Assembly: GCF_006345805.1 (NCBI RefSeq)
Contig: NC_043017.1
Coordinates: 3,906,001-3,970,000, forward strand
Length of the DNA: 64,000 nucleotides
Source of the DNA: Octopus sinensis
Lineage: Eukaryota
Direction of reading: 5' to 3'
Positions 101-37,322 of this stretch are shown here, one piece after another; position 1 is the first letter of the stretch, and each line of letters opens with the position of its first letter. Position numbers and translations under genes: made by a program. A model generated the notes under the pieces. That model saw only the letters and a list, made by a program, of their open reading frames with translations. It made no database searches and had not been told where the DNA came from.

Positions 101-204
101 CATTGGGAACTTAGCATGGTCTTCAAGTTGAATGTATTTTCCATCGGGTCCTACTTCAAGGATTTTCACAGAGTCTTCTGTAGGGCGGCTCATGGTCTCT
201 TTCT
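101..204 (-). CDS. IF gene A exon 8 (start of lamin-tail domain); gene continues off the left edge
   Basis: ttcag|AG AAA GAG ACC ATG... encodes KETMSRPTEDSVKILEVGPDGKYIQLEDHAKFPM|gtaagt. 104 nt, phase 1 to 0, same length as gene B exon 8. Confidence 0.88.
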
Positions 205-1401
205 CTGAAGAAAATGTCCAGAGGTATGAATATTATAAACTGTACATATATAAACACGTGTGTGTGTGTGCTTGTGTGTGTATGTACTTGTGTGTGTGTG
301 TACAAAGATACACACATGTATATATATATAGATATTTCTATATGAATTTACAGGTATATATATATAGAGAGAGACACACACACGCGCATGCACACGCACA
401 CATGCACACACACACACACACATATATAGATATTGATAGATAAGTAGATAGATTGATAGCTACCTACTTAGTCAAATATATACATACTACGTACGTATGT
501 ACATATATACATACACAGACACACACACACACACATACATACATACAAACATACATACATACATACATACAAACAAACATACATGGTAGCTGCCCCCTCG
601 TTATCGAGTATGACCATTGCACGAAGCTTAACTCGTTATCGTGCAATGCCTGTGCAAGAAGAGTTTTTTTTTTTAAAGTGAGGAAAGGCTGAGCACTGAG
701 TCAATCCCACTCACTAAGCAACAGCAGCCATGATCCGAAAAGAAGAACAAGTCAACATCATCGGTAACCACTGAGCCGCACGTTTTATGTCGGAGTCATC
801 CCAGTTACCTGAGTTACCTTCTCATAGAAGGATGCCCTAACAAAGGCTAGGAGTCCTTCACTCCCAATGGTTTAACCGCGCGATCGGGTATCAGTCCGAT
901 TATTTCTATGACCCCGCGCATGATACACCCTTAAGCTGGATAAGATTGATATAAGGAGTAAAAAAAAGAGAGAGAGAGAGAGAGAAACATATATAAAAAA
1001 GGCAGATATATAGTAAAGATATATATATAATTACACATTTATTGGATGGCCGTTGACTCTCAAGAGTTCCTTACCCTGTTGTTGATGTCTGATGTTGAAA
1101 TTCCAATAAAGGAGCCTTGGATCTAGGCTAGAAACCGCTTCTTTATTGGCAAGAACCCGGGATTTCTCGGTATACACAAACACAATAAAATAACCTCAGA
1201 ATTATGGAGGCTCCCTTATGCTAATTGTAACCCTCTGAGATTAAATTCCTGGGGTCGGCCTTGCCTTCCGATCTATTGGTGTCAATAACTGAGGAACTAC
1301 TATACTAATAGAATAGATTGTACACACACACACTCTCTCTCTCTCTCTCTCACACTGTCTCTGTCTTTCTCTCTCACTTCTCTCTTGCATTCCTATCTTT
1401 C

Positions 1402-1443
<42 letters not shown>

Positions 1444-1637
1444 CTCTCTCTCTCTTCTCTGTTTCGCTCATTATGTTCGGATCTGAATCTGGATGAGCTT
1501 GTTGTGTACCTGTACGCTGTGTCACGGTATCATTCTTGCCATTTTACCAATGATTTAATAGCCCAAGGTACATAACACGCACATACAAGCACATTCAAGC
1601 ACACCACATTCACTTACATACACATACTTACGTATAT

Positions 1638-1644
1638 ATGTATG

Positions 1645-1693
<49 letters not shown>

Positions 1694-1717
1694 TATATAT
1701 ATTATATATATATATAG

Positions 1718-1748
<31 letters not shown>

Positions 1749-2049
1749 CACACATTTATATATATATATGTATATATGTGTGTTGTGTGTATATACACAT
1801 ACATATATATATATACACACACATATATATATATAGGGAGAGAGAGAGAGAGAGAGAAAGAGAAATACACACATTTATATATATAATGTATATATGTGTG
1901 TTGTGTGTATATACACATACATATATATATATACACACATATATATAGATAGGGAGAGAGGAGAGAGAGAGAGAAAGAGAAAACACACATTTATATATAT
2001 ATGTATATATGTGTGTTTGTGTGTATATACACATACAATATATATATAC

Positions 2050-2080
<31 letters not shown>

Positions 2081-2101
2081 AATATATATATATATATTAA
2101 T

Positions 2102-2166
<65 letters not shown>

Positions 2167-2665
2167 AAAGTAAGGTAGGGGTTATGGGTGTAACCCACTA
2201 TGAGATATCATGAATAAATAATACAGCATTATAATATCCGTAAGTTGATGAACAAACCAAATTTGTTTCTCCATTTTCTTATTTGTATTATATGTACGTA
2301 TGTATGTATGTATGTACGTATGTATGTATGTATGTACGTATGTATGTATGTATGTATGTACGTATGTATGTATGTATGTATGTATGTACGTACGTACGTA
2401 CGTATGTATGTATGTATGTATGTATGTATGTATGTATGTATGTATGTACGTATGTATGTATGTATGTATGTACGTATGTATGTATGTATGTATGTATGTA
2501 CGTACGTACGTATGTATGTATGTATGTATGTATGTATGTACGTATGTATGTATGTATGTATGTATGTATGTATGTATGTATGTATGCATGTATGTATGTA
2601 TGTATGTATGTACGTACGTACGTATGTATGTATGTATGTATGTATGTATGTATGTATGTATGTAT
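1638..2665. repeat. Compound (TA)n/(GA)n/(TATG)n microsatellites
   Basis: Direct reading; includes a roughly 120-bp triplicated compound unit at about 1717-2060. Confidence 0.95.
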
Positions 2666-2732
2666 ATATGTTGCATTCTTTTATGAAGGAAGTGATGAAG
2701 ACAAATGCAACTCGCTGCTGCTAATGCGTTCA

Positions 2733-2944
2733 CAGGTGCCGACTCACCTTTTGTTTGATGTCCAGGTGCCGACTCACCTTCTGTTTTAGGTCCAGGTGCC
2801 GACTCACCCTCTGTTTGAGGTCCAGGTGCCGACTCACCTTCTGTTTGATGTCCAGGTGCCGACTCACCTTTTGTTTGAGGTCCAGGTGCCGACTCACCCT
2901 CTGTTTGAGGTCCAGGTGCCGACTCACCTTCTGTTTGAGGTCCA
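2733..2944 (-). repeat. Seven-copy 30-bp minisatellite encoding GPQTEGESAP-like units
   Basis: Unit tccaggtgccgactcaccttctgtttgagg starting at 2731, 2761 ... 2911; variant pattern suggests a 90-bp higher-order period. Confidence 0.95.
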
Positions 2945-2965
2945 TCAACCGGTTTCGAACTCTCA
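2748..2965 (-). CDS. IF gene A exon 7 (tail linker); end ambiguous, 7 candidate donors (exon ends 2928, 2898, 2868, 2838, 2808, 2778, 2748)
   Basis: ttttgcag|T GAG AGT TCG AAA CCG GTT GAT GGA CCT CAA ACA GAA G... Homologous to gene B exon 7 (GLQTESENA). Phase-2 start matches exon 6 and phase-1 donors match exon 8. Confidence 0.75.
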
Positions 2966-3476
2966 CTGCAAAATTAAGATACATTTAATGTAATCTCAAC
3001 AAATATTGTAGGTTAATACGTGAATTCAATGAAAGAAGAGTGTTTATTATTCGTTATTGCTGAACGTGTATGTGGCTTTGATGACGTTCAACCTCTCATT
3101 TTAGCCTAGACACCAAAAGTCTATTATGGCGAGGCTGATCTCGTCATTTTTGCGTATCCGTTCAAATCGTTGAATTTACATGTGTTGCATTGTAGTGTAG
3201 CGGGTGAACAGGTTTACGTCTGGCTGCTTTTCCTAGCAAACCTAGCAGACGGTGGTTTCGCTCCCCACTCACCGACTGCTTGGGTTGAGTGAAATGAAAT
3301 ACATTAATGTTTAATACACTTCTATATTTAAGAGATGAGGAATTATGTACATTATTTATGGAACTTTGTTTTCATCTTGTTTGTTGTTAACATAACGGTT
3401 CGGCTGATATACTCTCCAGCCTTCCGAACCTGGGTTCTCATTCTTAAGGTATTTTTCGATGTTGTTGTTATTATTA

Positions 3477-3548
<72 letters not shown>

Positions 3549-3660
3549 TCACTGCCTAGAATCGAACTCAGAATCTTGGGATTATATTATATATATATAT
3601 TAGATATATATATATTTACGAAGTCGAGACGGATATCTGCAGCTGACAGGCTTCTGCTAC

Positions 3661-3707
3661 TCTAGACCGATGATGGACAAAGATCCTGAAACATGCGTGT
3701 CTCTAGA
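3661..3707 (+). ncRNA. Hammerhead-like motif with CCGAUGA core variant
   Basis: UCUAGA-CCGAUGA-uGGAcaaagaUCCu-GAAAC-AUGCGU-GUC-UCUAGA. Confidence 0.5.
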
Positions 3708-4106
3708 TGCAGGCCTGCCTGCTGGGGGTATTTGTCTCCCCTTCGTAAATATATAAGGACACAGGAAAAAAAATGTGTCGAAGCCATCAGGAAGCGTCGA
3801 TGCTTCCTAGGGCTAAACAGCGGTGGTGTAATCCCCTACTGTCACGTTAAATTGACAGTATACAACCATTCTATCGCCCCACCACCGTAGTGGTGAAGTA
3901 GCCGCGCTCAGCTTCTGCTAAGGCCTCAAAACGGCCCCAAAAACTGGCGCATGCATTCTTCAGTGCATCTTTGCGAAGATTTGAAACACCTCCCTGATCT
4001 TGGTCACCATTTCGGCCTTGGTGTTGCAGGTAGAGCGCTTGGTGTCTCTCTCTCAACCGCGCCCGATATTTAGAAATTTAATATTTCTGATTTATTTAAT
4101 ATTTAC

Positions 4107-4327
4107 CTGCTATCTACGTCTTTAAGTTGTGCAAGCATTGCTGCCACCTCCATCCCTGTGAAGTTCTTAGCATTTGCCAGCTCTTCGAAGTCCTTGAACA
4201 CATCCTCGAACTCTCTACGCAAGCGAGCAATCTCGTCCTCGTAACTCGCAGCGTCGGATTCTCGTCCGTTTTCGGCCTCATCCCGTTGAAATTCCAGTTC
4301 AGTAATTTTACGTTTCATATCTGCTAT
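4107..4327 (-). CDS. IF gene A exon 6 (coil 2B end, degenerate helix-termination motif)
   Basis: tttacag|ATA GCA GAT...GAT AGC AG|gtaaat; 221 nt, the conserved IF coil-2B exon length; IADMKRKITELE...AKNFTGMEVAAMLAQLKDVDS. Confidence 0.92.
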
Positions 4328-4800
4328 CTGTAAAGACAATAAATAATGCAATTATTAATTGTAAAATAATATATAATTATTAATTATTATACAATTATTA
4401 ATTACCATAAAACTGTTGAGACAATTTTTTTACAGGGTATTAGGCTAAATTTGACAATTTTTTCGTTGGAATGTGAAGTTTAGAAAAAGTTAACTGATAT
4501 GGAGAACTGGAAACCAGTCAAATATTTTAATGCTGTCCAACCCTTTTGAACAGGGCCTTAGGCTCAATTGAAACAGCTACGTCAGGCTGCTGCAGACTGG
4601 TCAACATCTAGCTGGTGAGGGTCGCTGTTGGAAGGCAGTATGTGTGTGGCAGCAGGATTGGGGTCCTTGCCAGACCTTCGGAAAGGTCCTGTTGTGGATG
4701 TTCGAGAATTTCTATGACTTCACAAAATCCGTTTCTAGTCTTTCTAATTCTCCCAATTGTAATTTCATAGATCACACTGCGTCGGGCGCGGTTGAGAGAG

Positions 4801-4883
4801 ACACCAAGCGTTCTACCTGCAACACCAAGCGTTCTACCTGCAACACCAAGCGTTCTACCTGCAACACCTAGCGTTCTACCTGC
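4801..4883 (+). repeat. Four-copy 20-bp tandem repeat in a Tc1-like fragment
   Basis: (acaccaagcgttctacctgc)x4. Confidence 0.9.
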
Positions 4884-5752
4884 AGGTTCTGGGGCCGTTT
4901 TGAGGCCTTAGCAGAAGCTGAGCGCGGCTACTTCAAGTATTATTGTTATCGCTTTAATTATATGATATAGTTGAAACATTTTGATTTTTTAGAATAATTT
5001 TTAGTTATCGATGGGAAATTACATTTTCTTCTGCTTTTATGCAAACTGTGAAATGTATCCAACACATCCCGTATTCTTATTATTATTCTTATTAGGTGAA
5101 ACTAGCCCTTAACTGATTATATATATATTGATAAAAATGGTAAGACCACAAAAGACAGAAAGAGACCTCGATTTTATGTAAATCGAGGAATTTATCTGTA
5201 AATGTAATATGTGACAATTATTCAGTAGCCATGCTAAAACTCCGAGTTTCGGATGCCGAGGTGGAAATCCACGCCTCCATCTCTTCAGTTATCTGGCCAT
5301 CGGAAAAAATGGCTTCATATTTTTCCGATGGCTACCAAATAATTGTCACAAATTACATTTACAGTTATATCGTATGCATAAATTAAAAATCCCTTAAATT
5401 TTAATATTTTCTCTTCTCCATTTTAAACAAATTTGTTGAGTTTTATGGGATGCCTTCCCATAAATTCCCATAACACACCATATACAAGTATTATTTTGCA
5501 TTTTCGCAAACTTACGCCACTAGGCTACCAGCAAAAGATGAAGAATCTATTGTAGAAAGCGGATTTGGGAATCCTCCAAATTAAAGGACGAAATATAATT
5601 CAATCTTTCACACACACACACACAAACGCACAAACGCACACACACAAACACGCGCGCACACACACACACGCGCACACACACACACACACATATATATTTG
5701 TGTGTGGGTGTGCGTGTGTGTATACGCGCAGGTTTGTATACTGGTATAGATG

Positions 5753-5802
<50 letters not shown>

Positions 5803-5843
5803 TGGATGGATGGATGGATGGATGGATGGATGGATGGATGGAT

Positions 5844-5921
<78 letters not shown>

Positions 5922-5972
5922 CTGAGGGATTGACTGATTAGTTGGTTAGTTGATTGATGTAACGTTCCTTAC

Positions 5973-6068
5973 CTGAGTTTCAAGTTCGCTTATTTTACCC
6001 AAATCTCTTCTCTTCCTTGGGTCTATAAAATCTTCTTTGGGCTTGGCTTTTGCCTTCTCTAACTGTAA
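5973..6068 (-). CDS. IF gene A exon 5
   Basis: ctccatag|LQLEKAKAKPKEDFIDPRKRRDLGKISELETQ|gtaagg; 96 nt; flanks align with gene B exon 5. Confidence 0.85.
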
Positions 6069-6460
6069 CTATGGAGATAATAAAATTATAATTTTTATGT
6101 TTTATTTGTCTTCCAAATTGCAGTAGCTAAAGCGATATTACAAGGAAAAGTTACAAATAGTTGGATTGTTGTTCAGAACTGATTGTGAAAAAATAATCAA
6201 AAATAGGTAAAATTAACATAAACGGTTGCTGGACTCCTTTTCCTTCTACAAATGACCTGAAAAAAGTGAAGGGGGCTTGCCTGAGCCCTCTTCCATTCAA
6301 ATCTGTCCGTTGTGTATACAACCTGTATTTTCCCCTAGCGATCGAAATAAAACTGATTGCCTTTTCCACCCGGAAAGAAGGCTACAATTTGATTTACACG
6401 GACTCTGCTGATAACCAAGTCCGTTACTCACATAAGTACAGCTACGCAACATAACTCTTT

Positions 6461-6960
6461 CTACAACTTAGCAATGCTGGGCACTAAACATGTGTTATGC
6501 AGAACTCTTTCATCGTTCTGCAAGCGTGATGGATATGCCCTGATGTACAGCATATTCTCAACTCTCTCACTGGATATGCTAATACCGTTGGCTATTTGGC
6601 TTATAGTCAATCGCCTGTCGTCCATCACCATGTGGTGATCACAGTCGATGTTTTCCTCGGCGGTAGCAATTGCAAGACAGCTAGAATTTGGGTCATCTTC
6701 AAGACACTCCATTCCCTTCCTAAATTCAGCTGCCTACTTTTGCACCGTTCATAAAGCTGGAGCGCCATTTCATAATGTAGCAACCATGCCACAATGAACG
6801 TCCTTGCGGGAAGGGGGCGGCGAAACCTTTTCCTGCAGGTCCATAATAACACTACGATGCCAAATTTTGTCCATTTTCGAGAGCAGTCGCTAGCAGCTAC
6901 TTTTGAAGTCTTCTTTGAACAGTCAGATATCATATTACCTGGAATGAAACAATGATGTTA
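6461..6960 (-). mobile_element. Decayed mariner transposase fragment
   Basis: LEDDP...ENID..MVMDDRRLTISQIA..ISISSERVENML, mariner HTH region. Confidence 0.7.
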
Positions 6961-7255
6961 TTTATAAGACGAGCTGAAATTAATGCATACTAGATTTCAC
7001 AGTTCCAGCATCTCCCCTTCATAATCCACGTATGAAATCTTCTCCCAGCCCTCGTACAATGCACATTGAATATAAATTTGGTATCGAAAATAGCAATGCG
7101 CATAAAACTTCTCAGCAACGTGGCTCATACTATCTGAAATAAGGTGAAATGTGTCTACGTTCTTCCTGTAACTATACTACAGTATACTAAAGTATGGTAA
7201 GTAAGGCTCTTCAAATGTTTCAATTGAAAGCCATTTTCTGTGGATTTATAGAAGA

Positions 7256-7688
7256 CTAGCAGCATAGCCCGGCGTTGCCCGGGTATGTAAAAGCCCCTAG
7301 TAGGCAACGACTAATCCCAATCTAGTCGTTTCCCTCTAGGGAACGAAGGCGCATGTGTAGGTTGCAATGTTTTCTCTTCACTCGAATACTTCTGTGTATA
7401 CGATATTCCTAGCTGTCCCTTTGGGCGATAAAAAGGTCGAGTTGTGTCCCCTAGACAGAAAATGTAAAAAGCTCAGATTCTCGACCCCATGTCGAATTTA
7501 TCGATTTTTTTCAGAACTGGGGGAGCTTTTCAAAATTTTCGCTGCGTTAGTTTTGGATTATGACATTGGGCTATGTGTGTGTCAAGTTTCATCAGAATCG
7601 GTTGAAAGCCGTGGTCAGGGTGAGGGTACAACCTGACAGACACACAGACACACAGACAGACAAACTGCCGTTTATATATAGAGAGAGA
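7256..7688 (-). mobile_element. Non-autonomous Helitron
   Basis: Minus strand starts TC..TATATATAAA and ends with hairpin CCCGGGCAACGCCGGG then CTAG; sits between A and T without TSD. Confidence 0.75.
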
Positions 7689-7794
7689 TTTACGGATTAC
7701 AAAACGACAAAACATCAGAAGAACAAACAATATATAAGGTTAGTTTTCCAACTGTTTCAAAGCATCCAACTGTATTTGTTCTTTTGTACTCTCT

Positions 7795-8211
7795 CTCTTT
7801 ACTCTTTACTCTTTTACTTGTTTCAGTCATTTGACTGCGGCCATGCTGGAGCACCGCCTTTAGTCGAGCAACTCGACCCCGGGACTTATTCTTTTGTAAG
7901 CCCAGTACTTATTCTATCGGTCTCTTTTGCCGAACCGCTATGCTACGGGGACGTAAACACACCAGCATCGGTTGTCAAGCAATGCTAGGGGGACAAACAC
8001 ACACACACAAACACATACATACATATATACACATATATATACATATATACGACAGGCTTCTTTCAGTTTCCGTCTACCAAATCCACTCACAAGGCATTGG
8101 TCGGCCCGGGGCTATAGCAGAAGACACTTGCCCAAGATGCCACGCAGTGGGACTGAACCCGGAACCATGTGGTTGGTTAGCAAGCTACTTACCACACAGC
8201 CACTCCCGCGC
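7795..8211 (-). mobile_element. tRNA-derived SINE family 1
   Basis: A/B-box head GTGGCTGTGTGGT...GGTTCAGTCCC, internal (TA/TG) tract, AAAGAGT tail; about 30 nt from the exon 4 donor. Confidence 0.85.
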
Positions 8212-8240
8212 ATATTTGATCTTACTATATATTTCTTTAC

Positions 8241-8405
8241 CTGTCCCGCGTATCTTCTTTCCATGTCAGCAGTAGCTTTTCTCAACTTGTCCTCATACTG
8301 AGCGCTTAAATCAGCAACTATATTTCCAATTTCGGTCTTCTGTGTTTCATCGAAATCGGGTATCTTCTTCAATTTTGATATCATCGCGTTCAATTCCTTG
8401 ACCTC
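8241..8405 (-). CDS. IF gene A exon 4 (L12 linker / coil 2 start)
   Basis: tttgcag|EVKELNAMISKLKK...DLSAQYEDKLRKATADMERRYAGQ|gtaaag; 165 nt, as in gene B. Confidence 0.9.
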
Positions 8406-9019
8406 CTGCAAATAGTATTTAAAACAAAACAATTGGTAAAACGGAGATTAGAAGGCAACTATTGGTTTCAAATTTTGACACGAAGTCAGCAAATTCGGTG
8501 GTGTGGTAAGTCGATTAAATTGATTTCAATACTCAGCTGGTTCTTATTTTATCGACCCTGGGAGGATTAAAGGCAATGTCCATCTCGGCGGAGTGTGACC
8601 TCTCATCGTAAATTTGAACGAAATGCTGCTAAGCCTTTGTTAGAATGCCAATATTGGTTTCAAATGTTCGCAAAAGGCCAGCAATTTTTTGGATGTAGGG
8701 GCCTAAACCGGTGTGGTAAAGATTCTGCCATTTCGATGCACTTTAAGAAGCTAATATTAGGTTTTATTGAGATTTCGTAGATTTAAAACATAATGCTATG
8801 GCAAATTGCTGGTATACATCTTTTTCGGGGCCAGGGCAGATATGCTGTCAACACTGAACCCTTTCTTCGTCGAATCAAAGTAAATTCTCCCACCAAACTC
8901 CGAAAATTGTTGAGAGGAAGTGATACTCGATAGAATAAATTAGTGAAAGCAATACTAATCCTTCTCTGAGCGATTAGCGATGTCTGTCCGTTGTTATCTA
9001 TAATCAGATATGTGTAATA

Positions 9020-9430
9020 CTCTTACTCTTTTACTCTTTTACTTGTTTCAGTCATTTGACTGCGGCCATGCTGGAGCACCGCCTTTAGTCGAGCAACTCG
9101 ACCCCGGGACTTATTCTTTTGTAAGCCCAGTACTTATTCTATCGGTCTCTTTTGCCGAACCGCAAAGTAACGGGGACATAAACACACCAGCATCGGTTGT
9201 CAAGCAATGCTAGGGGGACAAACACAGACACACAAACACACACACGCATATATATATACATATATACGACGGGCTTCTTTCAGTTTCCGTCAACCAAATC
9301 CACTCACAGGGCTTTGGTCGGCCCGAGGCTATAGTAGAAGACACCTGCCCAAGGTGCCACGCAGTGGGACTGAACCCGGAACCATGTGGTTGGTAAACAA
9401 GCTACTTACCACACAGCCACTCCTGCGCCT
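9020..9430 (-). mobile_element. tRNA-derived SINE family 1
   Basis: Near-identical to other copies in the window. Confidence 0.85.
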
Positions 9431-9470
9431 ATGTGTCATTTTGAGAGATAAGTATTCTAGCTATAAGTGA

Positions 9471-9898
9471 TCAAGCCATAAGTGACTGCAGATTCGGGAT
9501 CGGGATAGGAGGCACCGACGAAAGTTTCTGCTTGGCGGGCACCTCGTCTTTTGGAACCTGATGAAAATCCTTAAAAAGACTCCGCCGGTTACGACGACGA
9601 GGGTCCCAGCTGATACGATCAACGGTACAGCTTGCTCGTGAAATTAACGTGCAAATGGCTGAGCATTCCACAGACACGTGTACCCTTAACGTAGTTCTCG
9701 GGGATAATCAGCGTGACACAGAGAGTGACAAGGCTGACCCTTTGAAATACAAGTACAACTCATTTTTGCCAGCTGAGTGGACTGGAGCAACGTGAAATAA
9801 AGTGTCTTGCTCAAGGACACAACGCGTCGCCGGGAATCGAACTCACAACCTTACGATCATGAGCCGAATGCCCTAACCACTAAGCCACGCGCCCTCAC
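9471..9898 (-). mobile_element. tRNA-derived SINE (family 2 relative)
   Basis: Head GTGAGGGCGCGTGGCTTAGTGGTTAGGGCA..GTTCGATTCCC; shares 3' part with family 2. Confidence 0.75.
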
Positions 9899-10104
9899 GA
9901 TCAAAATCTTACCAGGCTCATGAAATCACTGGAAAATCTGATATTATTTCAGGCAGATCTAACTGGTTTTCTTGAACGCTTCCTAACTATCAGCTTACTG
10001 AGATAGTTGTAACTTATCTCTTGAAAAGTATTGATCCTTTGATTGCGAAATTGACGCAACCTGATTCCAGGAAGTTGTAAACACCGTGAGGAATTATAAA
10101 AGAA

Positions 10105-10501
10105 CTAGCAGTATCGCCCGGCGTTGCTCGGGTTTGTAAGGGAAATAACTATATAAGCATTTTTAGAGATGTAAAGTATAATAGCCATCTCAATATGGCT
10201 AACCACAAAGGGGGGGGGGGTACTGTAGCTTTTTACGTTCTGACATTTAATAATAAATTTTTAGAGAGTTACTTCCCTTATATATGCCAAAAAGGCATTA
10301 AAAATGGGAAAAATTGATGGTAATTTTTTTTTTAAATCGTAGACTCATCGTAGACGCGCGCTAATACCCAGAAGGGCTCGATATGAATGACGACTATAAG
10401 ATACCCGGTTTTGGTTAAACTGCACCGCAAAATGTGGGAGTAGTTAGGAATCTAAATCGTAGGAGACAGACAGCACACAACCTCACTTTTGTATATAAAG
10501 A
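10105..10501 (-). mobile_element. Non-autonomous Helitron
   Basis: TC start, CCCGAGCAACGCCGGG..CTAG end, A|T target; empty site in paralog B intron 3 near 44250. Confidence 0.8.
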
Positions 10502-10584
10502 TATAACTAAAAACTACATGGCAATTCCCGTGCAAAAAAAAAAAGAAAATAACACGAAAGGGAAAAAAATAAGAGCAACATTAC

Positions 10585-10680
10585 GGCATCATGGATATCA
10601 TAATTGAAAGAAAGTTCGTCTTCCAGCTTCGCGGCACAGTCTGATAATTCCAATCTCTCACTAGTTTCCATTTCTAGTTC
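10585..10680 (-). CDS. IF gene A exon 3 (coil 1B end)
   Basis: ctgtag|ELEMETSERLELSDCAAKLEDELSFNYDIHDA|gtaatg; 96 nt. Confidence 0.9.
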
Positions 10681-11039
10681 CTACAGAAAAGATTAAAAAA
10701 ATACTTTCATCTTTATTTTTCGAAAAGTACACTTTACATCAATAATTAATCCTGGACGGAAGATGAAGTACAAAAATAAGAAAAGTGAAATCGGTTCGCA
10801 TAGGAACTATTTTGTGTTGCCCCTACTCCCCACCCCCACCCCATACGCACACACTGTTATTAGAAGTTTATGCAGTACTTTAATAACCGACGTTTTAGGG
10901 TTAGGGCACTTTGCAAGGAGACTATTCATAATATGATAGGCGACAATGCGTTATTCTTTAGAGCAGTGCGGGGTTCAAAAAACACCTGAGATCTCGACGG
11001 CGACCGGCAAAAAGAGATAGAGTTCATTTAAGCTCTAGT

Positions 11040-11575
11040 ATTTGTTTAACTTCCTCTCCTCTTCTTTAAGGAGGGCGAAATACAGATTTGCAGTCGATGC
11101 GACAAGGCTGGAGGAGGGGAAAATATCGCGGGCCGCCGTGTCCCAGATTAGGGATTTAACTCCTTCGTATGGGAAAAGGATTAGTCCTTCAACAGTCCAA
11201 TAGGCGAGAGCTGACCCCAGTTCACGGACTACATTGGGTTCAACCATCCCGCCGATGAAGGTGCGACTGGAGAACTGCGTTGCATGTAAGGACAGAAACA
11301 CTGCATAAAATGGGAGACTTCTTGGTGTATAGCGGAAAGACTAAACGAGCACGGGAGAGAATACAGTGACAAGAAACAGTCCTCCATACTCTATCAACAT
11401 CCCAGACACCAACATTGTGGCACACTGGGCCGAATTGACATCCACATTTTGTCAAAGCACCCGGTGGACCCATCACTTAGAAAAATACAAGAGTATCTCC
11501 TCATAAACGAAGCGTTAGCCGTACTAATTAGGAAATAGACGTAGAAGATAGAGATACACCAGTACCACATATAGT
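11040..11575 (+). mobile_element. Penelope-like element GIY-YIG endonuclease relic
   Basis: Across a stop and frameshifts: CVACKD..GETSWCIAERLNEH..SSILYQH..LRKIQEYLLI, matching the GETxR..RL.EH and R...E...I motifs. Confidence 0.6.
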
Positions 11576-11707
11576 ACTGAAAGAAGCCCGTCGTATATAT
11601 GTATGTGTGTGTGTGTGAGTGTGTGTGTGTGTGTGTGTGTGTAGGAGGTGTATGTGTGTGCGTGTGTGTGTATATGTGTGAGATTACTTCAAAGCATTGC
11701 AACGTAC

Positions 11708-11894
11708 CTCTCTAAGTTTACTCAGTTGATTCACCACTATGCTATTTCTGGCCTTCAAGTCATCAACTTGCTTCTGAAGTTCGCTTGCCCTCCTTCTGTT
11801 GGTTTCGCTCTCTGCAATGCGTTGGGCAACTTCATCGTGTAATCCATCGATTTCCGCTTGCACTCTGTCTTTCTCGTCCTTTACTTGTGTTAAT
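11708..11894 (-). CDS. IF gene A exon 2 (coil 1B, long form)
   Basis: tgtcag|A TTA ACA CAA...LTQVKDEKDRVQAEIDGLHDEVAQRIAESE...LSKLRE|gtacgt; 187 nt, phase 2 to 0. Confidence 0.9.
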
Positions 11895-12372
11895 CTGACA
11901 GAGAAATAGTCAAAATGGTTTTGCTAAGAAATTAAAACTTGACGTGCAGCTAAACGACGAATAGCGTTTTCAAAATTTTAATATCCTACACCCTCTTCTT
12001 TTTTCTTTGCCAGAGGGATGGAGAGGGGGAAAATAAAAATTTTGAAAACGTGTCTTTGGTGTTTTTGAAAATCTTCAATTTTTAAAGGACGCTCCAACGA
12101 CAACAACAAAACCGGAGATCCACTTTCTTAATACGAAATACAAAAGAGCAAAAAAAACTCATTTTTATATATCTCTCTTAATTCCAAAAGACCCTCAACC
12201 GCCACATGTTCACTTTCTGTCACAGATACGCTGGGTGAGGGGAAGGGTGTTTATTTATTTATTTTTGGAAAATTAAAATTTTACAAAAACATTTTTGTTT
12301 TTTCAGAATCATAATCTCTGTATTTTTCTGCGTATTTCGCTAAAAAAAAGTTCTAAAAAAGTAAAAAAAACT

Positions 12373-12681
12373 GTGGGGTGGGGTGGTAGGGGTGGGGTGT
12401 GGTAGGGGTGGGGTGTGGTAGGGGTGGGGTGTGGCGTGGCAGGGGTGGGGTGTGGCAGGGGTGGGGTGTGGCAGGGGTGGGGTGTGGCAGGGGTGGGGTG
12501 TGGCAGGGGTGGGGTGTGGCAGGGGTGGGGTGTGGCAGGGGTGGGGTGGGGTGTGGCAGGGGTGGGGTGTGTGGCAGGGGTGGGGTGTGGCAGGGGTGGG
12601 GTGGGGTGTGGCAGGGGTGGGGTGTGGTGTGGCAGGGGTGGGGATGTGGTAGGGGTGTGGGTGTGGTAGGGGGTGGGGGTG
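12373..12681 (+). repeat. G-rich 16-bp minisatellite (GTGGCAGGGGTGGGGT)n
   Basis: About 18 units with G4 runs. Confidence 0.9.
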
Positions 12682-12755
12682 ACTAAACTTTTGAAATGCC
12701 GATTTTTTTGCAGATTCGGAATCTCTGCAGTAAAAAAAAAATGGGGTTTCTGTAA

Positions 12756-13040
12756 GAAACTGAAAGAAGCCTGTCTTGTATATGTATATATATGTGTGTT
12801 TGTGTCTGTGTTTGCCCCCCCCCCCACACACACACACACACCACACCAACATCGCTTGACAACCGATGCTGGTGTGTTTATGTCCCCGTAACTTAGCGAT
12901 TCGGCAAAAGAGACCGATAGAATAAGTACGAGGCTTACAAAGAATAAGCCCTGGGGTCGATTTGCTCGACTAAAGGCGGTGCTCCAGCAAGGCCGCAGTC
13001 AAATGACTGAAACAAGTAAAAGAATAAAAGGATAAAAGAA
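12756..13040 (+). mobile_element. 5'-truncated SINE family 1
   Basis: Matches the 3' two-thirds of family 1. Confidence 0.8.
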
Positions 13041-13294
13041 AATTGGGATTGAGCCAACGAGAAGGAGATTCTTCATGGTCGTCCATTTATAACACAAATC
13101 GCACTCAAATGTGTCACAAAGAAGATGGAATTGTCATAAATGGAACGCCTTTAATTATCAGGAACTGAGCTAGGGCAAAACAAATCCGTCTAATAAGACG
13201 TTTCGTTAGAAATACAAATGGTGCTTCATTCAAGTCATCGATGACAATATCTGTTATTAAACAAAGATGTTTATCATTGATAAGCTTCATTATA

Positions 13295-13697
13295 GGCGCA
13301 GGAGTGGCTGTGTGGTAAGTAGCTTGCTAACCAACCACATGGTTCCGGGTTCAATCCCACTGCGTGGCACCTTGGGCAAGTGTCTTCTGCTATAGCCCCG
13401 GGCCGACCAATGCCTTGTGAGTGGATTTGGTAGACGGAAACTGAAAGAAGCCTGTCGTATATATGTATATATATATAAGTTTGTGTGTCTGTGTTTGTCC
13501 CCCTAGCATTGCTTGACAACCGATGCTGGTGTGTTTACGTCCCCGTCACTTAGCGGTTCGGCAAAAAAGACCGATAGAATAAGTACTGGGCTTACAAAGA
13601 ATAAGTCCCGGGGTCGATTTGCTCGACTAAAGGCGGTGCTCCAGCATGGCCGCAGCCAAATGACTGAAACAAGTAAAAGAGTAAAAGAGTAAAAGAG
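13295..13697 (+). mobile_element. tRNA-derived SINE family 1
   Basis: Full-length copy. Confidence 0.85.
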
Positions 13698-14167
13698 AGA
13701 GAGAAAGAGTATGATGATTGTGGCTGGTCCAGAAAAACAGTGAAATCATGTGGTGTCTTTTAAACGGACAGATTAGGAAAATTGCCAATTATATTATACA
13801 CCACACAAAGTAATTGAAATGCACATCTGGATTAATTACAAATTTTATATTTGTAAAGTCTAATTTTTGTAAATACTTAAGGTCGGATAAGTGAACGTAC
13901 GAAAGAGAGTTTTGTACCAATTATCTGCCAGAGCTATTTCGGGAATTCGAGTAAAAGGTATTGGTTATCCGGGATTTACATACGATCAGCAATTTTGATC
14001 GCTTTCGTATCAAAATTTAGAGTTCGAGCAACCAAGTATTTTTATAGATACCAAACGTATCTGCATAAAATAGCTAGGAGTGGTTTGGAGTGTTATCTTA
14101 GAACTGTGAAGGTAGTGTTTATGGACTTTTGCAATTAACTATGGCTGTTCTTATAAAAGCTTAAATA

Positions 14168-14560
14168 GCAGGAGTGGATGTGTGGTAAGTAGCTTGTTTA
14201 CCAACCACATGGTTCCGGGTTCAGTCCCACTGCGTGGCACCTTGGGCAAGTGTCTTCTGCTATAGCCTCGGGCCGACCAAAGCCTTGTGAGTGGATTTGG
14301 TAGACGGAAACTGAAAGAAGCCTGTCGTATATATGTGTATATATGTATATATGTGTGTGCATGTATGTTTGTGTTTGTCCCCCTAGCATTGCTTGACAAC
14401 CGATGCTGGTGTGTTTATGTCCCCGTCCTCTTAGCGGTTCGGCAAAAGAGGCCGATAGAATAAGTACTGGGCTTACAAAGAATAAGTCCCGGGGTCGATT
14501 TGCTCGACTAAAGGCGGTGCTCCAGTATGGCCGCAGTCAAATGACTGAAACAAGTAAAAA
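14168..14560 (+). mobile_element. tRNA-derived SINE family 1
   Basis: Near full-length copy. Confidence 0.85.
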
Positions 14561-16293
14561 AAAGAGAGAGAGTTTCCAATATTTAAGTGATAGAGATCAG
14601 GCTATCAGACTGCTAATTAGGTTAATAATTAAAGTGTAAATGAAGACGGAGAATGTTCACAATTTACTTTCCGTAGTTAAGGGTTTAGCCAAAGAACCAA
14701 TTAGACTATGTAGCAGACATCGGTTGTAGGGTCGATTTATTCGACTAAATCTTTCCAGGCGGTACCCCAGTATAGCCGCAGTTCAATGACCGAAGCAAGT
14801 AAAAAAAAAAAAAAAAAGAAATAATCGGTAACATTATCTGAGCATTAATTAACATCCTGGTTAATTACGAAAGTGCTGTACCAATCAATCATGTTAGGCG
14901 GCGGCGTTGATTGGTTGGTTGAAGTGGACCAGGAAGCTTATCTTTACGATATGACGCAGTATAAATTATTGAAATTCGATTGGACGTTGCGATACTACGA
15001 ATGTGAAAGAGTATCTGAGAATTGAGACCCCGCGTTTAAGTCATGCTACTCCAATGAAATTATTGCAAATATTATTTAGTTCACAATTCTAGTGAGTATA
15101 TCCATGGGTAACAGCCCAATGTTAGCAAAAATATTGATATTGTTCGTTGTAAGTGTTCTGAAACCTCTAAAACGGACTGAATTCTTTTTTACATCTATAA
15201 AAGCAAGGCATCACCTCCAATAATATTTCATAAAACATCTTGGAATTGGATTGGATGGATCTCCGATCAGTTCAATTCCCTCAAAGTCTTTCAATGGTGT
15301 CAACTGTGGTTCGTATGAATGGTTTCCTTAGTGTCTTTACTGAACTACACTACAAAAGCTTCATTCTTGTTCGACACAATTTTCCGATTCCCCCAATTTT
15401 TAAAGATTACCCCCCACCCTACCCCCGCTCTTGAGTTTTTACTAATTTTTCTCACAATCAACTCGTTCGAGAAAGTACAGTTTCGTCTTTTAAACTCACG
15501 GAGCATGTTAATTTATTCAGATAGTATCGTTATCGTGATTACAAACGTTCAAAGTCATTTTGATGTATTGACAAAAGAAACACGAAAGGTGAAGAGAGAA
15601 TGACTTTGATTAAGTCAAAAAAGTAAGTCGGGTTATTGAAAGCTTAGTTAAATTTCATGGGGCCTTCACTTCCATCATAGCTTGACATAGACTAGAAATG
15701 TGCCATAATACTCAAAACAATCACAGGGAACTGATCAACTAAAGAAATCAGCTTACACGGACTTACACTAGGGTGGATAGGAATTTCATTTCATCAGAAA
15801 TGTATATAGACTTAAACCGAAAGGTATGCCTGACCTAACAGCTCGAATGCTATTCATCTAGATATTGCAAATTTAGCTGAATCCTTTTGATATTTATGTA
15901 TTGTCTGAATGTCGAGCTATATCAAGATTCTTTTTAAAAATGAACAACTCGCCAGGCCGACTTTTTTTTTTTTACATAGAATATAAGAATTGAACCTAAG
16001 AGTTTTGTTCTGCAACAAACAGACCAAGCAGAGTTTCTTTGCTTAATATTGATTTCTTAAGTGTTGCAAATTTTAAAATTTCAAGAGCTGGATGCCTAAC
16101 TAGAATGCGAAAATTCACTGTAGGTAGAATGTAGAGAAAGAACATTAAAAGGAAATTGAAGTAATCTATTGAAGAGAAATTGACCTAACTTTAAAGATGG
16201 ACGTTTATGATGCGTAGAGGTTTTAAAGGATATAATAAAGGATATAATTAAGAGCAAATAATAATGGGTATATTAAGAGTCAATTTCACTTAC

Positions 16294-16730
16294 TGTTCTT
16301 TCAAATCTTCAACTTCTTCTTCAAGCGATTCATTTTTGGACTTTGTAGCTGCAAGTTCCACATCTTTGTCTTTTAGAAGTGTTTCCAACTCCTTCAGTCG
16401 ATCTTCGTATAAGATCTTGATTTTATCACATTTAAAGTCCTTCTCAGCACTCAAGTTATTTTTCAGATGTTTGTTTTCAGCTTCTAAGTAACGTATATTT
16501 TGAAGAAAGGTGGTAAGTTTTATATTTAAAGCTTGCATCTCTTTCTTTTCCTTTTCGCCCTTATTTTTCATTTCAGCAACCTGTTTTTGGCCATGTTCTG
16601 CTATCACTCCTTTGGGAAAGAACACTGGAGCTGGCTGTATGGGAGCTGGTATACGAATGCCATTCCTGAAAGGTCTTCTTCGTCTCACATGTCCCACTGG
16701 TTTTCTTGCTTTTATTTCTTCTCGATTCAT
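16294..16730 (-). CDS. IF gene A exon 1 (head, coil 1A, coil 1B start)
   Basis: ATG at 16730; EKKEMQALNIKLTTFLQNIRYLEAEN is a coil 1A variant; donor GAA CA|gtaagt, phase 2. Confidence 0.92.
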
Positions 16731-18727: not shown

Positions 18728-19229
18728 CTAGCAGTTTCGCCCGGCGTTGCTCGGGTTTGTAAGGGAAATAACTATATAAGCATTTTTAGAGAGTTACTTC
18801 CCTTATAGATGCCAATTCGGGCTTTCTTAGCCATTTCTGTTTTGGCGTCTTCAAGCCATGAAGTCGTTGTTCTAAAAGAACGCTGGTCTCCTTGACAACG
18901 CTTTACGACGTTGATTTCCTTACACTCCCTTCCCCACAGCTTCACGAGGGAGGGAAGGAGGGGAGAAGCAAACAGGTGCAAGTGTGACCATGGACGCCAA
19001 CTCCGCCGCCATCGACACACGAAAAATTATGCATTAAAATGGAATAGAAAATGATGTTAAATTATTTTTAAAATCGTAGACTCATCGTAGACGCGCGCTA
19101 ATACTCAGACGGGCTCGATATGAATCACAACTATATGATACCTGAATTTGGTTAAACTGCACCGCAAAATGTGGGAATCTAAATCGAAGGGAACCGACAC
19201 TCACACAACTACAGTTTTATATATATAGA
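18728..19229 (-). mobile_element. Non-autonomous Helitron
   Basis: Same termini; absent from the duplicated block near 23380. Confidence 0.8.
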
Positions 19230-19704
19230 TATATATTATACCAAACCTTACCTAAGATCCTCGTTGACAGGTATCTCAGACTGAATAAAGCTAAAAATAC
19301 GTTATGCAAATTAGTAGCTCCAGTTATCTGTAGCTATCGAATTTGATGAATACATAAACAGATTGGGTGTTAACTTATCTCAAATTTTTGTTAGGCACCC
19401 TTGATTAGCACCCGATAATCTTCTAGAATCGATTACAGCTGTTTCATTGTCTTTCATTGAACCCGGAACCACGTGGTTAGTAAGCAAATTACTTACCACA
19501 CAGCCGCTCCTGCGCCTATATGTATATTTTATATGATAAATATATATTTTATGTAAGAAGAAAAGAAGGGATAAAAAAGAATATAAGGCAGGTATCAATA
19601 ATAAAGCATTCAGTCTTAAACGATTTTGCTTAACTCTACCAAAGAAACGGACAGACACCAATAAATGCAAGTAGAATAAACATCCAAAATAATTCCTGAT
19701 GTAA

Positions 19705-20088
19705 GGAAGCACTCCGTCAGTTACGACGACGAGGGTTCCGGTTGATCAGAATCAACGGAACAGCCTGCTCGTGAAATTAACGTGTAAGTGGCCGAGCACT
19801 CCACAGGCGCATGTACACTTAACGTAGTTATCGGGGATATTCAGCGTGACACAGAGAGGGACAAGGCCGGCCCTTTGAAATACAGGTACAACAGAAACAG
19901 GAAGTAAGAGTGAGAGAAAGTTGTGGTGAAAGAGTACAGCAGGGATCACCACCATTCCTTGCCGGAGCCTCGTGAAGCTTTTAGGTGTTTTCGGTCAATA
20001 AACACTCACAACACCCGGTCTGGGAATCGAAACCGCGATCCTATGACCGCGAGTCCGCTGCCCTAACCAGTGGGCCATTGCGCCTCCA
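19705..20088 (-). mobile_element. tRNA-derived SINE family 2 (duplicated at 23891-24274)
   Basis: Head GGAGGCGCAATGGCCCA..GGTTTCGATTCCC; TSD aattcctgatgta. Confidence 0.85.
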
Positions 20089-20471
20089 ATTCCTGATGTA
20101 TGACAAGTAGGTCCAAATATCATTTAGAATTTCATGAAATTCAGAGTATAACACAGCAAAAATAGGGAGAGAGAAAAATCACATCTTTAATTGTGATAAA
20201 AGTGTCATGGCGGTCGTTTCTGCTGCATTAACATATTTAGACAGAAAAAAATTCAAATTAATGTATCCGAAAATACATGTTAACACAATGTTCTCAAGTC
20301 GATTCAAAATTAGTTGACTTCAAAGTGAACTAAGAAAATATTTCCAGTAGGTAAACGCATACAAAAGGAACGTCAAGATGAAAAATATATGATATTCTAA
20401 GAAAAGCTAATTTAGTATTCACCTTCAGGTGACGTCAGTGGATTGCGGAAGAATAAAATAAATATATAGTA

Positions 20472-20879
20472 GCAGGAGTGGCTGTGTGGTAAGTAGCTTG
20501 TTTACCAACCACATGGTTCCGGGTTCAGTCACACTGCGTGGCACCTTGGGCAAGTGTCTTCTACTATAGCCTCGGGCCGACCAATGCCTTGTGAGTGGAT
20601 TTGGTAGACGGAAACTGAAAGAAGCCCGTCGTATATATGTATATATATATACATATGCGAATGTGTGTTTGTGTGTCTGTGTTTGTCCCCCTGGCATTGC
20701 TTGACAACCGATGCTGGTGTGTTTATGTCCCTGTTACTTAGCGGTTCGGAAAAAGAGACCGATAGAATAAGTACTGGGCTCACAAAAGAATAAGCCCCGG
20801 GGTCGAGTTGCTCGATTAAAGTTGGTGCTCCAGCATGGCCGCAGTCAAATGACTGAAACAAGTAAAAGAGTAAGAGTAA
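20472..20879 (+). mobile_element. SINE family 1 (duplicated at 24655-25061)
   Basis: Family match. Confidence 0.85.
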
Positions 20880-21234
20880 ATATGAATTCTAAGTTACGAC
20901 AATTAGAAAGAGAGAATCTACGTCACAACAATTAATTATCTCTCTATTTAATATGCGAAACATTTTTAGAAAACTTATACTTTTGGAGCATTGAAAATAA
21001 TAACACAAACTTTTGACAGAACTCTCAGCTGATTTCAATATATGTACACAATTTATTTTCTCTATCCCAAATCCTTATAAAATATCTATTGTGCTTACAT
21101 TTTATTGAGGCTTTCACTAGGACACTCCACCAGTATTACTTTTCATTATGAGTGATTATGGCTTCTACTATGCAGTAGGTTCTTTCTTTTTTTTTTTTAA
21201 CTTGGGCTTATCCTTCCGACGGATCTCATTAAAC

Positions 21235-21640
21235 AACAATCTCCCAGCTACAATAGCATATCTCATCTCTAGATAATAACTTGATGACATTTTCGGATAA
21301 CTGCTTATGATGTGGGTGATATCTTCGGTGTTAACTCCACAAAGTCAGCATCGGTTATCACATTTTGCTGCTTTTACTTGGTTTCTGTCACTTTTGTGCA
21401 TCAGGTATTCGGTTGGTATATCTTGTTCTTAGATTGCAAACGCACGCCCTTCAAAGGGGAAGGTAGTAATCCAGTTGTTGGTGGATGATAAACTGGTGAT
21501 CAACGTTTCTATCATCCTGGTGATTTGTACTAACACATCCATGCATAGTCTTCAGCTGATATACGCCCATCCTTATAAGATTATCCATCACTGAATGCTA
21601 CTCAAAAACAATTTGCAAGCATATTTACATTCCCATATAA
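21235..21640 (-). mobile_element. R4/Dong-like LINE relic (duplicated at about 25405-25800)
   Basis: QDIPT...CDNRC*LCG...EDITHIISS, a CCHC-region remnant. Confidence 0.5.
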
Positions 21641-21739
21641 CAACTAAGAACATCACCATTATTGTATTACGCATACGCGGAAGTGTTTGTTCGACTAGGT
21701 GCTGGTGGCTTAATTACATACGACTCAAGCTAGAGAAGT

Positions 21740-21842
21740 GGTGCGTATTATACACAAGGTTTAGGTTTTTCAGAGGTACAGCCCCCTAAAAATCCCCTGC
21801 GTATTATACTCAAGGACGGACTATACTCGAGGATTTACGGTA
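21740..21842. mobile_element. End of pogo/Tc1-type MITE (duplicated at about 25900-26012)
   Basis: Terminates ...TATACTCGAGGATTTACGG|TA, with repeated GCGTATTATAC subterminal motifs. Confidence 0.45.
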
Positions 21843-22030
21843 TGTAAAATTTTATTGTATCCTAGAATACTATTTGTAGCAAGTAAAGCAATACTGTCTT
21901 ACGAATGATCGCTCCGTCCGTGACAAACCACATACATTCCTAACACTAGGAAGTTTTGTTTTTCTACGACGAACAAAGCCCAATATATATATATATATAT
22001 ATATAATATATATATATAATTATATATATA

Positions 22031-22168
<138 letters not shown>

Positions 22169-23069: not shown

Positions 23070-26000
23070 CATTTTATACCATTTGTTACAATCCATGAAA
23101 CGATTTACTTCTCAATATCCTAACTCCGTAGCTGTAACTAGTTAGATTTTATGACCATTTCATTTTTAGACACTTATCGAAAGTTTCTTTCATTTCCAGC
23201 GGCCCATCATGCCAAATAGGTTTGATTCCATACTTTGAAAAGTATGGCGTGTCGTAGGGGGTGATGCTTTGCATTAACAGACAGTTCAGTCTGTTTTAGA
23301 AGTTTTAAAACACTAACAACGAACAATATCCCTCGTCAGTCTAATACTGTCCACAAACAGTCGATATCTACTGTATAGGTAATATATATTATAACTGATT
23401 TTTTATTATAGGTAATATATATTATATCATACCTTAACTGTGATCCTCGTTGACAGGTATCTCAGACTGAATAAAGCTTAAAACACGTTATGCAAATTAG
23501 TAGCTCCAGTTATCTGCAGCTATCGAATTTGGTGAATACATAAACAGATTGGGTGTTAACTTCCCTCAAATTTTAGTTAGGCACTCTTGCTTAGCACCCA
23601 ATTATCTTCTAGAATCGATTACAGCTGTTTCTTTTTCTTTCATTGCACCCGGAACCACGTGGTTAGTAAGCAAATTACTTACCACACAGCCGCTCCTGCG
23701 CCTATATGTATATTTTATATGATAAATATATATTTTATGTAAGAAGAAAAGAAGGGATAAAAAAGAAAATAAGGCAGGTAACAATAATAAAGCACTCAGT
23801 TTTAAACGAATTTGCTTAACTCTACCAAAGAAACGGACAGACACCAATAAATGCAAGTAGAATAAACATCCAACATAATTCCTGGTGTAAGGAAGCACTC
23901 CGTCAGTTACGACGACGAGGGTTCCGGTTGATCAGAATCAACGGAACAGCCTGCTCGTGAAATTAACGTGTAAGTGGCCGAGCACTCCACAGGCACGTGT
24001 ACACTTAACGTAGTTATCGGGGATATTCAGCGTGACACAGAGAGGGACAAGGCCGGCCCTTTGAAATACAGGTACAACAGATACAGGAAGTAAGAGTGAG
24101 AGAAAGTTGTGGTGAAAGAGTACAGCAGGGATCACCACCATTCCTTGCCGGAGCCTCGTGAAGCTTTTAGGTGTTTTCGGTCAATAAACACTCACAAACA
24201 CCCGGTCTGGGAATCGAAACCCGATCCTATGACCGCGAGTCCGCTGCCCTAACCAGTGGGCCATTGCGCCTCCATTCCTGATGTATGACAAGTAGGTCCA
24301 AATATCATTTAGAATTTCATGAAATTCAGAGTATAACACAGCAAAAATAGGGAGAGAGAAAAATCACATCTTTAATTGTGATAAAAGTGTCATGGCGGTC
24401 GTTTTCTGCTGCATTAACATATTTAGACAGAAAAAATTCAATTAATGTATCCGAAAATACATGTTAACACAATGTTCTCAAGTCGATTCAAAATTAGTTG
24501 ACTTCAAAGTGAACTAAGAAAATATTTCCAGTAGGTAAACGCATACAAAAGGAACGTCAAGATGAAAAATATATGATATCTAAGAAAAGCTAATTTAGTA
24601 TTCACCTTCAGGTGACGTCAGTGGATTGCGGAAGAATAAAATAAATATATAGTAGCAGGAGTGGCTGTGTGGTAAGTAGCTTGTTTACCAACCACATGGT
24701 TCCGGGTTCAGTCACACTGCGTGGCACTTGGGCAAGTGTCTTTCTACTATAGCCTCGGGCCGACCAATGCCTTGTGAGTGGATTTGGTAGACGGAAACTG
24801 AAAGAAGCCCGTCGTATATATGTATATATATATACATATCGTGTGTGTGTTTGTGTGTCTGTGTTTGTCCCCCCTGCATTGCTTGACAACCGATGCTGGT
24901 GTGTTTATGTCCCTGTTACTTAGCGGTTCGGAAAAAGAGACGATAGAATAAGTACTGGGCTCACAAAACAATAAGCCCCGGGGTCGAGTTGCTCGATTAA
25001 AGTTGGTGCTCCAGCATGGCCGCAGTCAAATGACTGAAACAAGTAAAAGCAGTAAGAGTAAATATAATTCTAAGTTACGACAATTAGAAGAGAGAATCTA
25101 CGTCAAACAATTATTATCTCTCTATTTAATATGCGAAACATTTTAGAAAACTTATCTTTTGGAGCATTGAAAATAATAACACCAAACTTTTGACAGAACT
25201 CTCAGCTGATTTCAATATATGTACACAATTATTTCTCTATCCCAAATCCTTATAAAATATCTATTGTGCTTACATTTTATTGAGGCTTTCACTAGGACAC
25301 TCCACCAGTATTACTTTCCATTATGAGTGATATGGCTTCTACTAAGCAGTAGGTTCTTTCTTTTTTTTTTTTTAACTTGGGCTTATCCTTCCGACGGATC
25401 TCATTAAACAACAATCTCCCAGCTACAATAGCATATCTCATCTCTAGATAATAACTTGATGACATTTTCGGACAACTGCTTATGATGTGGGTGATATCTT
25501 CAGTGTTAACTCCACAAAGTCAGCATCGGTTATCACATTTTGCTGCCTTTACTGCGTTTCTGTCACTTTTGTGCATCAGGCATTCGGTTGGTATATCTTG
25601 TTCCTAGATTGCGAACGCACGCCCTTCAAAGTGGGAGGTAGTAATCCAGTTGTTGGTGGATGATAGACTGGTGATCAACGTTTCTATCATCCTCGTGTTT
25701 TGTACTAACACATCCATGCATGGTCTTCAGCTGATATACGCCCATCCTTATAAGATTATCCATCACTGAATGCTACTCAAAACAATTTGCAAGCATATTT
25801 ACATTCCTATTATAAAACTTAGAACATCACCTTATTGTATACACATGCGCGAAGTGTTTGTTCGACTAGGTGCTGGTGGCTTAATTACATACGACTCAAG
25901 CTAGAGAAGTGGTGCGTATTATACACAAGGTTTAGGTTTTTCAGAGGTACAGCCCCCTAAAAATCCCCTGTGTATTATACTCAAGGACGGACTATACTCG

Positions 26001-26180
26001 AGGATTTACGGTATGTAAAATTTTATTGTATCCTAGAATACTATTTGGTAGCAAGTAAAGCAATACTGTCTTACGAATGATCGCTCCGTCCGTGACAAAC
26101 CACATACTTCCTAACATCTAGGAGATTTTGTTTTTCTTACGACGAACAAAGCCCAATATAGATATATATATATTATATAT

Positions 26181-26218
<38 letters not shown>

Positions 26219-26266
26219 ATATATATATTTGATATATATATATATATTTATATATATATATATTAT

Positions 26267-26308
<42 letters not shown>

Positions 26309-37233: not shown

Positions 37234-37322
37234 TTGCTGCTGATGCTAGTGCGTTAGCGAGTGCATTCTCACTCTCTGTTTGAAGTCCACCCATAGAAGT
37301 TGCAATTGATTTCATGCTCATC
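37234..37322 (-). CDS. IF gene B exon 7 (tail linker)
   Basis: ttccag|G MSMKSIATSMGGLQTESENALANALASAA A|gtaagt; 89 nt, phase 2 to 1. Confidence 0.85.

Follow-up and report, generated by a model that had tools for sequence, protein, structure and literature searches.

A coding minisatellite of variable length over the exon 7 donor of an octopus lamin-tail intermediate filament gene, with the last donor probably the main one spliced

Gene A, an Octopus sinensis lamin-tail intermediate filament (IF) gene named "ifa-1-like" (101..16730, minus strand, in the window, i.e., the whole stretch of 64,000 nucleotides that we analysed), carries a coding minisatellite of variable length over the donor of its exon 7. 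Probably, it is mainly the last donor of this array that is spliced, and the copy number of each allele would be likely to set the length of a protein linker. RNA reads through the internal donor types, the linker is coding, and the alleles vary in the graphs built from RNA. The predominance of the last donor is what we infer from the intron-proximal preference among strong U1 sites, and it would hold here by analogy. A linker set by the genotype is more likely than a ladder tuned by splicing, i.e., the choice among seven donors that the preliminary description had proposed as a source of up to seven isoforms.

The gene comprises ten exons on the minus strand, with GT-AG introns in all nine cases checked, and these exons rebuild the RefSeq isoforms X1-X3 (P0001-P0003) except for the last 7 residues, which are presumably encoded in a further exon. 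Exon 6 (4107..4327, minus strand) ends the rod with a phase-2 donor and is joined to exon 7 in run X1, one of the four RNA runs considered below. The exon 7 donors are in phase 1; as had been proposed, this is what the 104-nt exon 8 (101..204, minus strand), in which the lamin-tail domain starts, needs in the model that rebuilds the RefSeq isoforms. In its longest form, exon 7 (2748..2965, minus strand) measures 218 nt, ends at the last donor and corresponds to isoform X1; forms of this kind predominate among the RNA contigs. Isoforms X1 (588 aa), X2 (578) and X3 (548) correspond to donors 7, 6 and 3, respectively, and the repeats are present in every RefSeq model of the gene.

The IF rod of the protein is recognised by the Filament profile PF00038 (87.7 bits, for a cut-off of 40), and residues 475-588 match the lamin-type Ig fold of lamin B1 (7dtg_A, Z 13.7, rmsd 2.4, 110 aligned). 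The Pfam LTD stays below the cut-off in a profile search of P0001, yet it figures in the precomputed annotation of this protein. The C-terminus, HDVLVK, is devoid of a CaaX box. Compared with its consensus, the rod-end motif (helix-termination motif, in exon 6) is conserved in the paralogues (LEIAAYRKLLEGEE) and degenerate in gene A (MEVAAMLAQLKDVDS); it is lost (window 4107-4160) in both gene A and its O. bimaculoides orthologue and kept by all paralogues, a loss that may change filament assembly. Between the rod and the lamin-tail domain, the repeats are coding and form the 10-aa-unit spacer that the preliminary description had foreseen, predicted to be disordered (segment 399-483, with a linker pLDDT <50), in a P/G/E/S-rich linker of 73 residues. 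A search for shorter proteins with other repeat numbers gave a single match among 5,710 candidates, which is a paralogue fragment. Gene A has the rod, the Ig-like lamin-tail domain and the lack of a CaaX box of the protostome lamin-tail cytoplasmic IF proteins, as defined in PMC10125929, and it differs from them by its degenerate rod-end motif and its repeat linker.

On the minus strand, exon 7 contains seven phase-1 A[AG]G|GTGAGT donors within a 30-nt tandem array, detected by TRF at 2733-2944 (2733..2944, period 30, 7.1 copies, 93%). The GT dinucleotides of GTGAGT lie at 2927, 2897, 2867, 2837, 2807, 2777 and 2747, and the possible exon ends run from 2928 to 2748, for exon lengths of 38 to 218 nt. 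Five donors are of the AAG| type, i.e., donors 1 (2922..2930), 3 (2862..2870), 4 (2832..2840), 6 (2772..2780) and 7 (2742..2750), and two are of the AGG| type, i.e., donors 2 (2892..2900) and 5 (2802..2810), and the coding frame of the array holds zero stops; on all these points, the preliminary description was exact. The unit is made of 14 nt from behind the donor and 16 nt from before it, and it encodes GESAPG[PH][QK]T[EK]. The units vary at four sites, unit 2 being identical to unit 5, and these four sites show no significant avoidance of the six donor bases (P=0.39); nothing here points to selection on the donor bases. Over 294 kb, the donor motif occurs eight times on the minus strand, seven of them inside the array. 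The seven donors are one event, i.e., the tandem copying of a single-donor unit, and not seven independent ones. Their in-phase regularity is not independent evidence, because one tandem duplication yields it, and the prior for a unit length divisible by three is about one in three. Local and nascent RNA folds predict all seven donors to be equally paired, and RNA structure was rejected as donor selector on this ground.

About nine related lamin-tail IF genes or fragments, gene A among them, follow one another in tandem on the minus strand of the 294 kb examined (window coordinates about 110676 to -140612, G000:C21). In this cluster, some RefSeq isoforms and fused models (P0012, P0019, P0024) appear to merge exons of adjacent genes. 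In the paralogue gene B, exon 7 (37234..37322, minus strand) reads CAA ACA GAG AGT GAG AAT and ends at GCA GCA A|gtaagttgcatttgt, with an intact ancestral donor; the homologous site of gene A reads gcagcagcgagttgcatttgt and is degraded, both sequences being as previously claimed. The ancestral A|GT[AG]AGT donor ends exon 7 in all seven paralogous copies that a pattern search retrieved, and gene A has lost it. Its 3' end of the ancestral exon 7 persists as an intronic remnant (2701..2733, minus strand) with a degraded donor (CGA|GTTGCA, or a phase-0 GCA|GCGAGT). At the position of the new donor of gene A, the paralogues read G|CTGAG (four copies), A|GTGAGA (two copies) or, in gene C, AGG|GTGAGT. 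In gene C (L004, about -28730 to -28790), this latent AGG|GTGAGT precedes the annotated GAA|GTGAGT donor by about 40 nt, and the gene constitutes a natural two-donor control. An IF gene of Helix is said to have recruited a new exon 7 donor, in a manner similar to the donor shift of gene A.

The O. bimaculoides orthologue P0020 groups with gene A (support 100/100, in a tree that kept all 18 rows) and, at the protein level, reads GSQTE|DKETM, i.e., its exon 7 stops at the new site without repeats. Because of this, the shift of donor likely preceded the amplification, as judged from the sequences; O. bimaculoides, known here from protein and not from DNA, may carry a silent array downstream. The frame of gene A is open in three species. 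Several other features of the region can be mentioned. In the present assembly, exon 1 of gene B (window 48990-49000) is frameshifted relative to O. vulgaris P0028, by an assembly error or in a pseudogene allele. L019, together with window 63205-64000, its exon 7 lying near window +67950, is a near-copy of exon 7 and later exons of gene B; upstream of it, only an exon 1 fragment was found, and it is possibly a partial duplicate. Between genes B and A, a direct 3-kb duplication of 96% identity joins window 19215-22165 and 23399-26337.

To follow the use of the donors, we aligned the contigs of four runs (X1, X3, X9 and X19), out of 24, to window 2680-3460. These four runs come from four studies and carry two organism labels; none of the 24 is registered as RNA, and we took the four as RNA because of their zero intron depth and the loose end of exon 6. 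Runs X3, X9 and X19 are shallow (depth about 10-55), and contigs drop rare variants. When the graph is built with k=31, contigs stop at any donor in use; this value fits record 2 of run X1, which measures 61 nt and is centred on the private base of unit 6. The array is covered in all four runs, and the depth over the intron (2977-3300) is zero in all four; in run X1, the loose end at 2969 is that of exon 6, which is thereby linked to exon 7. Thus, gene A is expressed and spliced and its exon 7 included, as the preliminary description supposed. Window 3300-3460 holds an interspersed repeat, with a very high summed depth in all four runs.

For each internal donor type (1, 2/5, 3, 4 and 6), at least one run has a contig that passes over it without a break. 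Donor 1, which would give the 38-nt exon, is read through in runs X3, X9 and X19 (unbroken contigs to 2909/2910), with none among the contigs listed for X1. Donor 2 is read through in the contigs of the same three runs, from which donor 5 cannot be separated since its unit is identical. Donor 3 is crossed in runs X3 and X19, donor 4 in a contig of run X9, and donor 6 in run X1 at a depth of 254. Beyond the array, the depth falls to zero in three of the four runs (X3, X9 and X19). In run X1, bin arithmetic gives about 729 at 2748-2777, about 760 upstream, and 11.2 beyond the array. This depth drop and the graph models point to donor 7 as the probable main donor. A contig of depth 11 in run X1 reads beyond it, from pre-mRNA or from a rare tail-less form; past donor 7, the frame stays open across a TATG microsatellite, translated as HTYI repeats, until a stop near 2185 (window 2185-2747). 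We rejected splicing at the degraded ancestral donor: CGA|GTTGCA resembles the consensus poorly, the GC option is in phase 0, and record 1 of run X1 passes unbroken through both sites. Skipping of exon 7 is also improbable, as the frame would be lost between the phase-2 end of exon 6 and the phase 1 that exon 8 needs.

The copy number of the array varies between alleles and species, as observed from protein models and RNA graphs. Eight units are counted in the O. vulgaris model (598 aa) and seven in the O. sinensis window; one O. vulgaris unit with K-V in place of K-G implies a G|TT, hence a putatively dead donor. An O. vulgaris-type allele rebuilds record 2 of run X1 exactly, and the addition of a donor-6 junction destroys this record. 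The window's own allele reproduces none of runs X3, X9 and X19 under any of three donor sets; therefore, the array is polymorphic and the RNA test concerns other alleles. Graphs were searched over five variable sites with a limited number of extra edges. For run X3, one of 6,868 graphs fits with a residual <1, and it has a junction at unit 7 only. For run X19, weakly constrained (8 free depths, 11 bins), two of 6,868 fit, with the unit-7 junction only. For run X9, with ties allowed in placement, 52 of 11,401 graphs fit and two terminal units are needed; under a stricter placement rule, a wider, incomplete graph search gave no good fit for this run. In the simplest reading of X9, the two terminal units are the one that closes the O. 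vulgaris array and a hybrid between units 6 and 7. Two contigs of this run end at a unit end with 21 unplaced letters; we read them as the terminal units of two alleles, and they may alternatively reflect the exclusive use of an internal donor. Six of the 52 fitting graphs have a unit with both a junction and read-through, the extra junction being at depth 0 in the two displayed.

We propose that the array arose and acts in the following way. The ancestral donor of exon 7 would have decayed, and a latent site inside the exon (GAG G|CT GAG T to G|GT GAG T) would have taken over, shortening the exon to a state comparable to that of the O. bimaculoides orthologue. In the vulgaris/sinensis lineage, the 30-nt unit straddling this new donor would then have been copied in tandem. 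The near-consensus donors would all bind U1 well, and the intron-proximal site would win; each added copy would shift the boundary by 30 nt and add 10 residues, re-exonising sequence that had become intronic. Added copies would be tolerated because the unit is a multiple of three and stop-free. The upstream donors, above all donor 6 at 30 nt, may yield minor in-frame isoforms, and the short 38-nt first option and intronic elements retained behind the old donor may contribute to the choice of the last donor. Several points go against this reading: RefSeq has isoforms not for donor 7 alone, but also for donors 6 and 3, the human F7 gene uses its most upstream repeat donor, i.e., the opposite polarity (PMC1557585), and, by analogy, the 30-nt spacing would stand at the threshold of the proximal rule.

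A true alternative-donor ladder, in which one allele gives several in-frame isoforms at substantial, perhaps tissue-regulated, levels, appears unlikely to us, although part of its basis stands. RefSeq isoforms X1, X2 and X3 match donors 7, 6 and 3 exactly, i.e., three of the seven donors are annotated; every donor is near-consensus and in phase, and run X9 has its two junction-like contigs. Moreover, two extra repeat donors are used in human CBS and 6-16 (PMC1557585) and one in ABCA7 (PMC5954066). On the contrary, the ladder predicts that contigs break at every donor, and they are unbroken over all internal donor types. In run X1, side branches were kept at depths 11 and 45, and none at donor 6. 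When a junction was added after an internal unit, 13 of 17 trials no longer gave the listed records and the remaining four assigned it a depth of 0, and in the contigs of the four runs, which drop rare forms, no internal unit with both a supported junction and read-through was seen; the seven-isoform ladder did not appear there. The donors bear no sign of constraint. The inferred terminal unit of X9 lies one mismatch from unit 3 and one from unit 6, and because of this, isoforms X2 and X3 may be mis-mapped alleles; they may also be minor real isoforms, donor 6 standing 30 nt from donor 7, a spacing at which the preference for the proximal site is incomplete (PMC3413131). RefSeq isoform models usually rest on RNA alignments. 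A minor or tissue-specific use of the ladder may exist. It is likewise unlikely that, on top of the allelic variation in copy number, some octopus tissues use several donors per allele, as a regulated splice rheostat giving a tether of 0-6 extra 10-residue units.

It is improbable that the array is an ordinary coding repeat, expanded for protein reasons or by drift, with internal GTGAGT motifs kept inert by context or structure and without any competition between donors. O. vulgaris has lost one donor without visible effect, local folds predict pairing at every one of the seven donors, and no internal junction was seen in the contigs of the four runs, all of which would agree with it. However, donor 7 differs from the other donors neither in sequence nor in predicted pairing, so masking fails to single it out; the orthologue uses the position of unit 1, and donors 3 and 6 figure in RefSeq. 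The degenerate rod-end motif and the long branch of gene A could also evoke a decaying duplicate in which the array is tolerated noise. This is very improbable given the frame open in three species, the spliced RNA in four runs and a protein of the same "ifa-1-like" name reported in O. vulgaris skin mucus (PMC11431876), matched by name and not by accession.

The architecture itself is known (F7, CBS, 6-16, LMNB2, ABCA7, mirages); here, the polarity appears reversed and the repeats translated. In the human F7 IVS7 37-bp VNTR, with which PMC1557585 groups CBS IVS13, 6-16 IVS2, LMNB2 and PDGF, the minisatellite monomer spans the exon-intron boundary and reiterates the donor, and the copy number is polymorphic, as in gene A. 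According to the same source, in the F7 type the most upstream donor is used (with up to two more), the repeats are intronic and the F7 donor is weak (CV 74), whereas gene A has near-consensus donors, a 30-nt stop-free coding unit and upstream donors read through in RNA, donor 1 itself being crossed in three of the four runs among the contigs listed. In the 25-bp VNTR of ABCA7 intron 18, the donor GT opens each unit and use of the next donor retains one unit, as would be the case in gene A, but there, retention shifts the frame and is minor, and the first donor is canonical (PMC5954066). The amphioxus 'mirage' minisatellites (Adh3, globins) likewise repeat exon-intron boundaries in tandem in an invertebrate and are unstable in length; PMC3087553 reports regular splicing as unaltered and exonisation as a hypothesis only, whereas the units of gene A are found in mRNA and in annotated proteins. 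For duplicated strong 5' splice sites, the use of the intron-proximal one rises beyond about 30 nt and nears 100% at >=45 nt (PMC3413131). This preference would explain the use of the last donor among the near-consensus donors of gene A, with the restriction that the rule was measured on two sites in mammalian systems, and gene A has seven sites, in a mollusc, at the threshold spacing. In the open-access literature, we found neither a precedent for a last-donor or in-frame donor-spanning array nor a publication on gene A itself.

The donor-spanning minisatellites known so far keep the first donor and stay intronic; if the last donor is used here, the array would be a natural example of an exon that grows as its donor is duplicated. 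Three stages can be followed across related genes and species, i.e., the ancestral donor, the shifted donor and the amplified donor. The array also lends itself readily to testing the upstream-scanning model (F7) against the intron-proximal rule, its 30-nt spacing standing at the reported threshold, and it warns that isoforms annotated inside such arrays may be allele mis-mappings. For one octopus IF protein, the effect is probably modest; if the rheostat were true, a graded series of IF proteins would carry the lamin-tail domain on a variable tether.
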